Source of the DNA: an uncultured virus (IMG/VR IMGVR_UViG_3300007597_000002)
Taxonomy: Duplodnaviria; Heunggongvirae; Uroviricota; Caudoviricetes
DNA: 64,000 nt
IMG/VR virus record: IMGVR_UViG_3300007597_000002
Reading direction: 5' to 3' (one strand)
Every line of letters starts with the position of its first letter. The first letter of the stretch is position 1. A program made the position numbers and the translations under genes. Below, piece by piece: positions 2,490 to 5,216 of the stretch. Under the pieces are notes generated by a model. The model made no database searches. It was not told the origin of the DNA and was given only the letters and a program-made list of their open reading frames with translations.

Positions 2490-3106
2490 TAACATCAGAA
2501 CAATTTCACCATCTATTTCCAAGAGCACAAGACCCAACATCATGGGCAGAGTCTATGTGTAATGTATTTCCAACATATGATATAACAACACCAAAACGTG
2601 TGGCAGCATTCCTCGCTCAGTGCGGTCATGAGTCTGGTGGTTGGACAGTGTTTGAAGAAAACCTTAACTATTCAGCACAAGGATTAAATGGTATCTTCAA
2701 GAAGTATTTTCCTACACTTGAATCTGCACAACCTTATGCACGCAAACCAGAAATGATTGCCAATAAGATCTATGCTAATCGTATGGGTAATGGCGCACCA
2801 GAATCAGGTGATGGATATAGGTTTCGTGGTCGTGGACCAATTCAACTAACTGGTCGTGCAAACTATACAGCATTTGCTAAAGAGATGTTTGAAGACTGGC
2901 AGAATGTGGTAGATAATCCTGACTGGGTTACTGCTGATCGTGATTTTGCTCTTATGTCAGCTATTTGGTTCTGGAATAAAAATGGACTAAACAAAGAAGC
3001 AGACGCAGGTGATCTAAAATTAATGACCAAAAAGATTAATGGTGGTTACATTGGACTTGAAGATCGCATTAAACATTATAATGAGTGTATTGATTTACTT
3101 ACCTAA
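2486..3106 (+). CDS. glycoside hydrolase family 19 endolysin
   Basis: AFLAQCGHESGG, ENLNYS, FRGRGPIQLTGRANY, SAIWFW, TKKINGG. Confidence 0.9.
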   Translation: MITSEQFHHLFPRAQDPTSWAESMCNVFPTYDITTPKRVAAFLAQCGHESGGWTVFEENLNYSAQGLNGIFKKYFPTLESAQPYARKPEMIANKIYANRMGNGAPESGDGYRFRGRGPIQLTGRANYTAFAKEMFEDWQNVVDNPDWVTADRDFALMSAIWFWNKNGLNKEADAGDLKLMTKKINGGYIGLEDRIKHYNECIDLLT

Positions 3107-3756
3107 TGCCAACATTTATACATCATGATCTTCCCAAATTGGAACGTACCGACTCTAACCAAGTTAGACTTTACAAAACCCCGTCGGGTCGAGCCTATCC
3201 AAGCATCACCACCATTACAGGACTCCACTCAAAACAAGGAATCCTCGAATGGCGAAAAAGAGTCGGAGAAGCAGAAGCAAATAGAATCTCCAGCCAAGCA
3301 AGTAAACGTGGAACAAAAGTCCATGGATATTGTGAATCATATCTCCGCAGTGAACTCTGTGAACCTGACACGTTCGATTCAGAGATATTTGGAAGAATTA
3401 GACCCTACCTCGAAAAAATAGATAACATACATGCATTAGAAACACCATTGTATTCTGATCATCTTGAGGTTGCTGGGACTGTTGATTGTATTGCTGAGTA
3501 TGAAGGTAAACTTTCAGTTATTGATTTTAAAACTTCAAGCAAACCAAAGACTAGAGATCACATCCATGGCTATTTTATGCAGACTGCAGCATATGCTGTG
3601 GCATTCGAAGAACTAACAGGAATTCCAGTAGGAAGACTGGTTATCATAATGGGTATAGACGATAATCCGACAAAAATATTTGTCGAAAAAAGAGATGACT
3701 GGATCGATGGATTTAAAAGTCTAAGATTAGAATATAAAAGTAAACATGGAATCTAA
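3106..3756 (+). CDS. PD-(D/E)XK exonuclease of T4-like phages
   Basis: YPSITT, RGTKVH, AGTVDCIA, IDFKTS, YFMQ..AYA. Confidence 0.85.
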   Translation: MPTFIHHDLPKLERTDSNQVRLYKTPSGRAYPSITTITGLHSKQGILEWRKRVGEAEANRISSQASKRGTKVHGYCESYLRSELCEPDTFDSEIFGRIRPYLEKIDNIHALETPLYSDHLEVAGTVDCIAEYEGKLSVIDFKTSSKPKTRDHIHGYFMQTAAYAVAFEELTGIPVGRLVIIMGIDDNPTKIFVEKRDDWIDGFKSLRLEYKSKHGI

Positions 3757-4213
3757 TATTAATTTTTTTGAGCATGTATTATCTAATGATGACTGTCAGA
3801 CATTAATAAATTATTTACTAAATGATACTCCATCAGCAGTTTCATTAGATTATAATAATTTAAAAAGAACACGAGTATTAGAGCATTACATTGTTATTGA
3901 TCTAAGTAAAAAATTAAATATCAATTTTGATCGAGCGTTTTTAATGCATTATAATGCAGGAATTGGTTCCGTATTACATAATGATAACTATTCGATTGAA
4001 GAATCACGAGAAGTATTTAATGCATGGAAATCTTCTGCTGTTGTGTTTTTAAATCAAGAATTCGATGGTGGAGAATTGATTTATCCAAATCAGGGGATTA
4101 CTATAAAACCAGTAACAGGTAATATGGTAATTGCACCAGCAGATGAAAGCGCACCACACTTCGTGAGTCCATCATCTTCAGATAGATATGTATTAGTATT
4201 AAGAATTATTTGA
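3746..4213 (+). CDS. 2OG-Fe(II) oxygenase (prolyl-hydroxylase-like)
   Basis: LHND (HxD), FLN..FDGGEL, PHFV, RYVL. Confidence 0.75.
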   Translation: MESNINFFEHVLSNDDCQTLINYLLNDTPSAVSLDYNNLKRTRVLEHYIVIDLSKKLNINFDRAFLMHYNAGIGSVLHNDNYSIEESREVFNAWKSSAVVFLNQEFDGGELIYPNQGITIKPVTGNMVIAPADESAPHFVSPSSSDRYVLVLRII

Positions 4214-4238
4214 CACGTAAGAATATATAATGTATAAT
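4210..4238 (+). promoter_or_regulatory. consensus sigma70 promoter driving the tmRNA precursor
   Basis: TTGACA 4210-4215, 17 bp spacer, TATAAT 4233-4238. Confidence 0.9.
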
Positions 4239-4244
4239 TGTGAT

Positions 4245-4581
4245 ATTGCTGTATGAAGCAAAGAGAAAAGTGTTCTGGACGGGAGTTCGATTCTCCCCAC
4301 CTCCACCAAAAAGATAATTATGAAAAATAGATATACCGCATTGTGTCCAACTTGTTTTATTAGATTTCAGTGGATAAAGGACAATGGGTTATCGAAACAT
4401 AAGTGTCTTTCTGATGGGGGTGACTAGGTTTCGACAGGGCAACAAGTAAATGCGTGGACAGCACGAGACAGATACTCGTTAAAAGTAAAAAACCGTAAAC
4501 GCAAACGACGCACAGTTCGCATTAGCAGCCTAAACACTGCTTAGGGTTTCGGTAGGTTTCCTCGTAACAGAATAACCTACC
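4245..4581 (+). ncRNA. ssrA: circularly permuted (two-piece) tmRNA: acceptor piece ~4245-4308, intervening segment 4309-4415, coding piece 4416-~4581
   Basis: T-arm GGGAG-TTCGATT-CTCCC (4281-4297), then CACCTCC-A-CCA (4298-4308), lie upstream of the 5' strand GGGGGTG (4416-4422). They pair 7/7 with the G3.U70 alanine identity pair. Tag frame 4501-4533 encodes ANDAQFALAA*. Closing hairpin GGTAGGTT/AACCTACC at 4551-4581. Confidence 0.93.
4320..4427 (+). CDS. putative 35-aa CxxC/HxC micro-protein in the tmRNA intervening segment
   Basis: Manual translation: MKNRYTALCPTCFIRFQWIKDNGLSKHKCLSDGGD*. Not in the ORF track; only a weak SD. Confidence 0.45.
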   Translation: MKNRYTALCPTCFIRFQWIKDNGLSKHKCLSDGGD

Positions 4582-4652
4582 ACTTTATTATGCCAGCCAC
4601 GTAGTGTGCCAGCCATATAATTTTAACCTTATTACAACTTATAGGAAAATAA

Positions 4653-5216
4653 ATGAAATTGAAACTTATCACTGCTGCTTCTCTAGTAGCATTCTCTGCA
4701 ATGGCAAGCGCACAGTCATCTGTAACTGCAACATATGGTGTTAAAGAAGCAAATGTTACAAGTGTGCAGAGCCATGTAACGAACATGTCTGTTAAGACTC
4801 GTGCATTTACCAATGTCGATCTTGATGCAGGTATCAATACTGAAACTGCTGACGTAGCACGCACTGTTACAAATCGTTATGAAATTGGTGTATCTACAGG
4901 AATGGATCTAACTTCATTTCTTCGTGGTGATGTTCGTCTTGGTACTGGTATGAAGCAAAAATCAGGTGTTCAAGACTTTGGTTACTACTCTGTAGAACCT
5001 GGAGTTACTGCAAAGTTTGGTGATATTAGCACACGTGTAGCATATCGCTATCGTACTGCATATGACTCAAATGTTAATGCTGATACTAGTCAAACTATGC
5101 GTTATAGCGTAGGTTATGCATTAACTAAGAAAGATGCTATCCGACTTGGATATGATGTTCAAAGTGGTGATGGTGCTAACAAGCAAACTACTATCGCTTA
5201 CACTCGCTCATTCTAA
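4653..5216 (+). CDS. small outer-membrane beta-barrel (porin-like) protein
   Basis: Sec signal peptide (MKLK...AMASA), alternating amphipathic strands, C-terminal aromatic BAM signal (AYTRSF). Confidence 0.75.
   Translation: MKLKLITAASLVAFSAMASAQSSVTATYGVKEANVTSVQSHVTNMSVKTRAFTNVDLDAGINTETADVARTVTNRYEIGVSTGMDLTSFLRGDVRLGTGMKQKSGVQDFGYYSVEPGVTAKFGDISTRVAYRYRTAYDSNVNADTSQTMRYSVGYALTKKDAIRLGYDVQSGDGANKQTTIAYTRSF

Follow-up and report, generated by a model that had tools for sequence, protein, structure and literature searches.

An open reading frame between the two pieces of a phage tmRNA gene

The 64,000-nucleotide (nt) stretch of DNA considered here (the window) belongs to the uncultured virus IMG/VR IMGVR_UViG_3300007597_000002, a T4-like freshwater phage, and carries at 4247-4533 a beta-type, circularly permuted transfer-messenger RNA (tmRNA) gene. 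We found that the intervening segment (IVS) between its two pieces contains a micro-open reading frame (ORF) which, on the strength of the comparative evidence presented below, is a real, selected small-protein gene. The tmRNA gene is recovered by two Rfam models, RF04321 (tmRNA_permuted; 131.8 bits over 4247-4533, cut-off 47) and RF01850 (beta_tmRNA; 127.2 bits, cut-off 84), as well as by ARAGORN, which calls a permuted tmRNA at 4216-4624 with the tag ANDAQFALAA. In the permuted order the T-arm and the 3′ acceptor strand with its CCA come first, followed by the 5′ acceptor strand and the tag frame. The acceptor piece delimited by the RF04321 alignment and ARAGORN lies at 4247-4308 on the plus strand, with the CCA at 4306-4308, and is followed by the 107-nt IVS at 4309-4415 (+), a 95-nt insertion relative to the 18-nt Rfam consensus. 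The coding piece recognized by ARAGORN and Rfam (4416-4624, +) starts with the 5′ acceptor strand GGGGGTG (4416-4422), whose first residue, G1, is position 4416, and includes the tag reading frame ANDAQFALAA with its stop codon (4501-4533, +); its 3′ end at 4624 is that of ARAGORN, the RF01850 alignment ending at 4587. Upstream is a predicted sigma-70-type promoter on the same strand (TTGACA at 4210-4215, a 17-nt spacer and TATAAT at 4233-4238), which matches the consensus at 12 of 12 positions and is itself aligned by the Rfam beta_tmRNA model (4210-4238). By homology with other permuted tmRNAs, the IVS would not be part of the mature tmRNA.

The ORF at 4320-4427 (+) has 35 codons and encodes MKNRYTALCPTCFIRFQWIKDNGLSKHKCLSDGGD, followed by a stop codon; it occupies 96 of the 107 nt of the IVS, and its conserved core, residues 1-32, corresponds to 4320-4415. 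The initial annotation of this locus, made from the sequence letters, had noted the ATG at 4320 in the 107-nt spacer, and its translation is exactly the one that we obtain; it was also right in placing the last codons of the ORF inside the 5′ end of the tmRNA, as the final four, GGG GGT GAC TAG, fall within the 5′ acceptor strand with the TAG at 4425-4427. Judged alone, the ORF is only mildly unlikely to have arisen by chance, an ATG-started ORF spanning 5.3% of dinucleotide shuffles of this IVS, and it is the comparative data that decide.

The ends of the IVS form a terminal stem. The pairing between AAAGATA and TGTCTTT that had been pointed out previously is real, and by our folding computation extends further than claimed: IVS nucleotides 2-8 pair with 96-102, and nucleotides 10-14, which include the AUG, with 90-94, giving 12 pairs in all. 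The 5′ arm (4310-4316 and 4318-4322, +) comprises a purine-rich, Shine-Dalgarno (SD)-like AAAGA and the start codon, and the 3′ arm (4398-4402 and 4404-4410, +) coincides with the codons for His27-Lys28-Cys29-Leu30-Ser31; both arms were delineated by folding and by comparison of the family variants described below, 20-21 of 21 of which keep the terminal-stem pairs. The minimum free energy of the IVS is −24.1 kcal/mol (z −3.08), and none of 200 shuffles folds as well. This fold, the preservation of the stem and the chance frequency of a spanning ORF all speak for a simpler alternative, in which the IVS does no more than form a structured hairpin for processing and codes for nothing, the ORF being a by-product of the constraints on the stem. 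The alternative is countered by the pattern of sequence variation, to which we turn next.

Conservation and purifying selection

Homologues of the peptide were sought with back-translated IUPAC DNA patterns. The strict pattern CPTCFIRF detected 10 viral loci, of which 8 lie in tmRNA IVSs, and at least 119 loci in metagenomes, with 8 in IVSs among the matches listed. The looser pattern CPxCFxRFxW detected 56 viral loci, of which 35 have HKC or YKC at the right distance; 34 of these 35 directly follow the CCA of a tmRNA, as against none of the remaining 21. The ORF is represented in IVSs by at least 21 distinct DNA variants, borne by tmRNAs whose T-arm/acceptor sequences are of at least five kinds (acceptor strands such as CACCTCC, CAGGTCC, CAGCTCC and CTGGTCC). 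In every one of the 21 variants the ATG is located 11 nt past the CCA and the frame is open, and the 101-nt forms of the IVS lack, in frame, two codons (6 nt) that are present in the 107-nt forms.

The substitutions are likewise distributed as in a coding sequence. Among the first 10 variants, with the codons imposed by the patterns left out, there are 7, 7 and 16 variable states at codon positions 1, 2 and 3, and all four codons are in use for Gly23. Across the 21 variants, the frame of the ORF shows 22 synonymous versus 40 non-synonymous codon-state differences and no stop, whereas the other two frames show 10 versus 36 and 10 versus 33, with stops in 4-5 codon columns. A GY codon model yields an omega of 0.27 (log-likelihood, lnL, −587.214 versus −603.262 at omega = 1; p ~1e-8, chi-square), and with a reduced codon set, which excludes the start codon, codons 28-32 of the stem and the seven codons fixed by the search patterns, the value is 0.36 (lnL −462.457 versus −469.824 at omega = 1; p ~1e-4, chi-square). 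The initial annotation had staked its case on homologous spacers keeping the frame and the Cys/His residues, and they do; the synonymous bias across related spacers that it had raised is also found, omega = 1 being rejected with either codon set. Because the micro-ORF is a selected coding sequence, the transcript is very probably both a messenger and a tmRNA precursor, a dual function likewise anticipated by that annotation. The in-frame indel, the third-position excess and the two omega estimates at the same time argue against the IVS being only a processing hairpin.

Members of the family were also recovered without any imposed pattern. A profile of 10 variants was searched against 1.84 billion representative proteins, giving 7 matches at E ≤0.001, three of which are small proteins (49, 49 and 34 amino acids (aa); E 2e-23 to 4e-13) that carry CPTC, CPSC or CPKC, plus KHKC. 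The other four are long proteins (552-1538 aa) matched through repeated weak stretches, and we treated them as unrelated Cys-rich repeats. The window's own peptide is absent from a collection of ~15 billion proteins. In an alignment of 23 sequences, Cys9, Cys12 and Cys29 are invariant, and all but one of the sequences have His27. As a separate observation, ten loci of this peptide family (L333 and nine others) have an odd T-arm, GCGGGGGCAGTGCCCGCC, without the usual GTTCGA T-loop, which may signify a degenerate or unusual tRNA-like domain of the tmRNA.

A free-standing homologue in a tRNA cluster

The one viral locus of the 35 that does not follow a tmRNA CCA (L375) carries a free-standing homologue of 32 aa with its own SD sequence (AAGGA) and TAG stop, at 406-504 on the minus strand, between the genes for tRNA-Arg(tct) (684-758) and tRNA-Thr(tgt) (318-391). 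We found no permuted tmRNA in its 13.9-kb record, which is 25% complete. The homologue is identical to the window peptide at 21 of 30 positions (70%), and the two genes differ by 8 synonymous and 9 non-synonymous codon differences, with nucleotide differences of 5, 4 and 13 by codon position. Its RNA is not more stably folded than shuffled sequences (z −0.26), and the ribosome-binding site (RBS) is unpaired. Hence, a gene with the same third-position excess exists outside the stem context of an IVS, and together with the selection on the IVS-borne variants this largely refutes the notion of a purely non-coding hairpin, which we regard as highly improbable.

All four of the Cys, Cys, His and Cys residues are kept in this copy and in the three small profile matches. 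Because these sequences keep the KHKC without the stem, the conservation of that motif is not merely a consequence of base-pairing constraint. Further, since the copy sits in the spacer of a tRNA cluster, it suggests that stable-RNA operon spacers in general, beyond the IVSs of tmRNA genes, host the peptide gene.

The IVS as an exchangeable cargo slot

The window's IVS is one instance of a much wider pattern. A 32-nt pattern derived from the window's T-arm detected at least 119 viral loci. Among the matches listed, to which all counts in this paragraph refer, 115 of 119 are permuted tmRNAs, whose IVSs range from 28 to 208 nt and comprise 73 unique sequences in 53 families. We defined a spanning ORF as one with an ATG within ~20 nt of the CCA that remains open across the IVS. 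Of the 23 IVS families of at least 80 nt, 8 have such an ORF, as against 1.74 expected from dinucleotide shuffles (P ~1e-4), and SD-like motifs are seen in 6 of these 8 versus 1 of the 15 others. The latter 15 are non-coding hairpins, which lends some support to the processing-hairpin alternative. At 35 loci the flanks are identical to those of the window over 32 nt upstream and 30 nt downstream, and these loci hold 21 different IVSs belonging to 18 families. To judge from these comparisons, the IVS is a general exchangeable gene slot.

A complementary search for CCA followed by TAAGGA detected 42 loci; the 5′ strand could be located in 24, and spanning ORFs, 22-73 aa long, are present in 23 of these. 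L143, the one exception, seems to be what a deletion has left of a 64-aa ORF: its 52-53-nt IVS, shared with L072, retains the SD arm together with the final 12 codons of the ORF seen in L035 and L133, and looks like the product of an internal deletion in an L035-type gene. Among the other 18 loci, a tmRNA was found in all five that were followed up (Rfam E ≤1; three over the cut-off). Five of the CCA-TAAGGA loci seem to be chance matches within protein genes.

The cargo is diverse. The largest is found in L295 and L296 (virus records G005 and G001), where a 483-nt IVS encodes a 156-aa protein (ORF at 1611-2081 of L296, minus strand) that matches the homing endonuclease family PHROG 655 (E 6.7e-15) and scores 20.6 bits with Pfam HNH, just below the cut-off of 21.4. 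This ORF starts 11 nt past the CCA and ends with a TGA one base before GGGGGTG; the start of the same HNH-type ORF is present in L127, L142 and L150. A 52-aa IVS peptide is identically encoded by five different DNA sequences, all the differences being synonymous, and looks like a second IVS gene family under purifying selection. This coiled-coil-looking family includes L124, L125, L140, L141, L159 and L123/L147, with a diverged homologue beginning MDEQDKLKELQEH. Several further IVSs (L006/L021/L089, L025/L028, L066, L094 and L136/L144) carry short ORFs of 22-32 aa that are strongly hydrophobic and membrane-helix-like, with a TAAGGAG-type SD; the variants in L006 and L089 differ by a V-to-I, an L-to-V and one synonymous change. 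No family was found for 9 other IVS peptides tested in Pfam or for 11 tested in PHROGs.

The bacterial relatives present a different picture. In bacterial genomes the same T-arm pattern detected 30 loci with 7 permuted genes, six of which (in Herminiimonas, Noviherbaspirillum and three metagenome-assembled genomes, MAGs) have GC-rich, ORF-free hairpins of 28-59 nt, again a point in favor of a processing hairpin as the sole role of the segment. The IVS of the seventh is identical to a phage IVS: this locus (L308, in the MAG bacterium UBP17_UBA6191) has an 88-nt IVS of 45% GC identical to those of the viral loci L002, L054, L063 and L113; the contig is probably of phage origin and was binned with a bacterial MAG.

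A model for expression: translation before folding

The terminal stem of the window's IVS encloses both the SD-like sequence and the start codon, and since it would bury the RBS in the folded precursor, it suggests that translation precedes folding. The computed cost of opening 4309-4325 is in keeping with such an order of events. Of the 9 nascent lengths up to 4405, 8 have a cost of at most 1.1 kcal/mol and the remaining one, which ends at 4375, a cost of 3.8 kcal/mol; the cost is 5.6 kcal/mol at 4415 and reaches 10.8 kcal/mol from 4427 on, when the 3′ arm and the acceptor stem are able to form. For all 12 of the other ORF-bearing IVSs that could be parsed, out of 15, the computed cost likewise increases, from 1.3-7.0 to 7.3-17.7 kcal/mol.

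We propose that the gene would be transcribed from the consensus promoter of the tmRNA, as part of the pre-tmRNA. During synthesis of the first ~90 nt of the IVS the RBS would be accessible, and one or a few ribosomes could load co-transcriptionally and translate across the RNase P site, terminating at whatever stop codon the tmRNA body offers (in the window, the TAG at +12). Emergence of the 3′ arm and of the 5′ acceptor strand would at once lock the RBS in the 12-bp terminal stem, stacked under the acceptor stem; the RNA would then fold, the IVS would be excised, presumably at sites homologous to those of other permuted tmRNAs, and both tmRNA pieces would mature. Taken as a whole, an explanation in which a genuine, portable small-protein gene resides in the IVS, is translated before the RNA folds and forms no part of the tmRNA appears to us rather probable.

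Several observations weigh against this explanation. On the side of expression, the window's own leader, AAAAGATAATT, is without a canonical SD, and AAGGA is present in 12 of the 21 variants and missing in 9, including the window's. Reading through into the tmRNA would endow the peptides with tails of 3-27 residues, which is odd for a functional protein. On the side of conservation, the search patterns had fixed Cys9, Pro10, Cys12, Phe13, Arg15, Phe16 and Trp18 in 20 of the 23 sequences of the alignment, and one locus (L234) has a Tyr instead of His27. Moreover, the codons for His27 and Cys29 double as the 3′ arm of the stem in IVSs, and unrelated IVS ORFs in the same frame (L134 and L293) also end in CLYDGG, because of which the Cys/His conservation inside IVSs is partly confounded. 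With regard to the protein itself, the window peptide matched no Pfam or PHROG family. AlphaFold gave models of low to modest confidence: the first, of 35 aa from 10 sequences, has three short strands at a pLDDT of 63.8, and the second, of the 32-aa core from 23 sequences, reaches 74.3. Foldseek returned nothing at E ≤0.001 with both models, and the best Z with VIA was 3.7 for the first model, with none for the second.

The metatranscriptome libraries speak both for and against. Contigs that join the CCA, the IVS and G1, with 0-9 differences from the window and a depth of ~3, are found in 4 runs from 3 studies; separate contigs with depths of 19-57 start at 4427-4430, directly after adapter sequence, although contigs cannot give RNA ends or levels. 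These contigs show no joints, and the parts that they do not cover are uninformative. The depths are as would be expected if the mature coding piece were abundant and the precursor rare. They are also compatible with DNA carry-over, because in run X1 the depth of the IVS equals that of the upstream gene, and the contigs may derive from contaminating DNA.

A non-stop feedback circuit?

The initial annotation had gone further and proposed that RNase P cleavage at 4416 would remove the stop codon from the IVS, making it a non-stop messenger and so a substrate of the tmRNA itself. In its developed form this is an ArfA-like non-stop sensor: the product of the stop-less IVS messenger would be tagged and destroyed unless trans-translation fails, whereupon it would accumulate. 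The geometry of the ORF allows for such a circuit. In all 21 variants the ORF stays open up to the cleavage site and continues across G1. The positions of the stops past G1 are unconstrained (+12 in 8 variants, +27 in 5, +90 in 3, and +24, +54, +57, +60 and +69 once each), as if the sequence downstream of the cleavage site were free. The part of the ORF encoded in the IVS has 32 codons, and since these match the 32 residues of the free-standing homologue, the truncated product would be a complete protein. The arfA mRNA, a stop-less message repressed by trans-translation, is a precedent (PMC10107115).

Against this, both arms of the stem are still present in the excised IVS, where opening 4309-4325 is predicted to cost 6.8 kcal/mol, a cost at which the RBS would stay buried and efficient translation would be disfavored. 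The drift of the stops between +12 and +90 also speaks against the circuit. Because most of the other IVS ORF families stop inside the IVS, at a TGA one base before G1, a non-stop message is not the general design of such genes, and the free-standing homologue has a normal stop in a record in which no tmRNA was found. Finally, a tag ending in ALAA, as that of the window does, is a degradation signal, and hence the non-stop route would yield no stable product under normal conditions. Thus, of the previous proposal, the crossing of the RNase P site by the ORF stands, whereas the circuit itself, while geometrically possible, is unsupported, with several results against it; we consider it very unlikely. 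A more sweeping conjecture would have excised stable-RNA spacers (the tmRNA IVS and the gaps between tRNAs) serve as dedicated translate-once-then-fold slots, with the RNase P-crossing ORF of the window's family acting as an ArfA-like sensor of tmRNA maturation or trans-translation capacity; this we deem quite unlikely.

The metal-site motif and possible functions

The Cys and His residues had been taken in the initial annotation to form a plausible C2HC metal site. The conservation of the CPxC and HKC residues bears this out in part, while the single Tyr in place of His27 and the lack of a match to a Pfam family or a known fold do not. Because no zinc-finger family or fold was matched, metal binding by the CPxC...HKC motif stays a motif-level inference, though a plausible one, and the ~32-residue core is probably a metal-binding knuckle or ribbon. 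A sequence-profile search of the PDB gave a best E of 0.8, to a thymidine kinase. In a language-model-based protein atlas the nearest clusters are unnamed viral small proteins (0.91-0.92), followed by the named leads SR1P, Zn_ribbon_Com and the PhnA zinc ribbon at 0.84-0.85, which is below the reliable range.

One functional possibility is that the peptide is a dedicated accessory of the tmRNA, which might for instance bind the pre-tmRNA, SmpB, RNase P or tag-dependent proteases, its location in the IVS reflecting a functional coupling. Such a role would account for the occurrence of 34 of the 35 viral family members in tmRNA IVSs, across several tmRNA types, and the sole exception is also in a stable-RNA operon spacer; two of the nearest named leads, Zn_ribbon_Com and SR1P, at 0.85 and hence below the reliable range, are RNA-linked zinc proteins. 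Yet the slot behind identical tmRNA flanks also holds membrane peptides, coiled-coil-like peptides, an HNH nuclease and non-coding hairpins, and the free-standing copy lies in a record without a detected tmRNA, albeit an incomplete one. Hence, we view a dedicated accessory role as unlikely. Under the preferred reading of a portable gene translated ahead of folding, our best guess is that the product is a small nucleic-acid- or protein-binding early factor, unrelated to trans-translation.

Genomic setting and relation to known systems

The virus record from which the window comes is of 110 kb, is 67% complete and encodes T4-type proteins, namely a gp32-like single-stranded-DNA-binding protein (SSB), baseplate wedge, sheath and portal proteins, and PhoH. 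A BLAST search of 4150-4700 against 50,697 phage records found no close cultured relative, the sole match being a weak one to the Xanthomonas phage Rb1 at 13% coverage. Upstream of the tmRNA gene are genes for a PD-(D/E)XK nuclease-family protein (3106-3756, +; PF12705, E 1.2e-7) and a 2OG-Fe(II) oxygenase-family protein (3746-4213, +; PF13640, E 4e-7). The gene 3′ of the tmRNA (4653-5216, +) codes for a 187-aa protein with a signal-peptide-like N-terminus, whose sole match is a sub-threshold one to Pfam PEP_mutase (22.8 bits versus a cut-off of 31.5).

Dual-function RNAs such as SgrS/SgrT and SR1/SR1P, in which one transcript is both the messenger of a small protein and a functional RNA, offer a general parallel. 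In the pre-tmRNA, by contrast, the mature RNA would not retain the coding part, and folding probably keeps the two roles apart in time. Intervening sequences are also known from 23S rRNA genes, where they are excised by RNase III. In Coxiella burnetii such a sequence bears the S23p ORF, whose product is seemingly not made (PMC4990558). As in the window, a stem-closed segment that is cut from a stable-RNA precursor carries an ORF, and this ORF-bearing 23S rRNA IVS is, by analogy, the closest published counterpart that we found (PMC4990558). It differs in having an rRNA as host and a single ORF family, whereas the tmRNA IVS holds many exchangeable genes, and the ORF of the window is under measurable purifying selection (PMC4990558).

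Two-piece tmRNAs have been described in aquatic phages, namely the OM43 phage Melnitz and pelagimyophages (Buchholz et al. 2022, PMC9004378). They share with the window's gene the circularly permuted ssrA, the T4-like aquatic phage host and an early-type promoter, but are of the alpha type, unlike the beta-type (RF01850) gene of the window; the word "intervening" occurs zero times in the main text of that paper, and we noticed no protein gene described there between the tmRNA pieces (PMC9004378). The 2025 tmRNA database paper, whose phage sequences number only 79, describes group I introns of tmRNA genes that carry genes for LAGLIDADG homing endonucleases, and IVSs of permuted tmRNAs that contain a tRNA-Ala gene or a repeat element (PMC11915505). 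These too are foreign cargo in a removed part of a tmRNA gene. However, the LAGLIDADG genes reported there sit in self-splicing T-loop introns and the IVS cargo is RNA or repeat DNA, whereas the protein genes described here, including the HNH nuclease of the relatives, sit in the IVS itself (PMC11915505). The arfA mRNA, the model behind the feedback circuit, resembles the window's ORF in losing its stop through an RNase cut, but the cut product of the window has a predictedly buried RBS, and its truncation, translation and tagging are hypothetical (PMC10107115). In a full-text literature search, none of the titles and abstract openings described protein genes in the IVSs of permuted tmRNAs, though the supplementary tables of PMC9004378 and PMC11915505 may list IVS contents. 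Cargo ORFs in the excised parts of stable-RNA genes are a known kind of arrangement, to which the protein genes in the tmRNA IVS belong.

Implications

Annotation takes tmRNA genes to encode RNA alone and treats the IVS of the two-piece forms as discarded filler. That of the window, as the comparative evidence indicates, holds a selected protein gene, and those of its relatives hold dozens of others, among them one for a homing endonuclease. They would constitute a reservoir of phage small proteins that is missed by gene callers and RNA annotators alike, with the conserved tmRNA flanks acting as recombination arms through which the cassettes are swapped. In this arrangement one strong early transcript apparently acts as a messenger before it becomes a stable-RNA precursor, and an RNA stem sets the switch from one role to the other. 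If so, this switch would be a compact example of how RNA folding can control translation kinetically.

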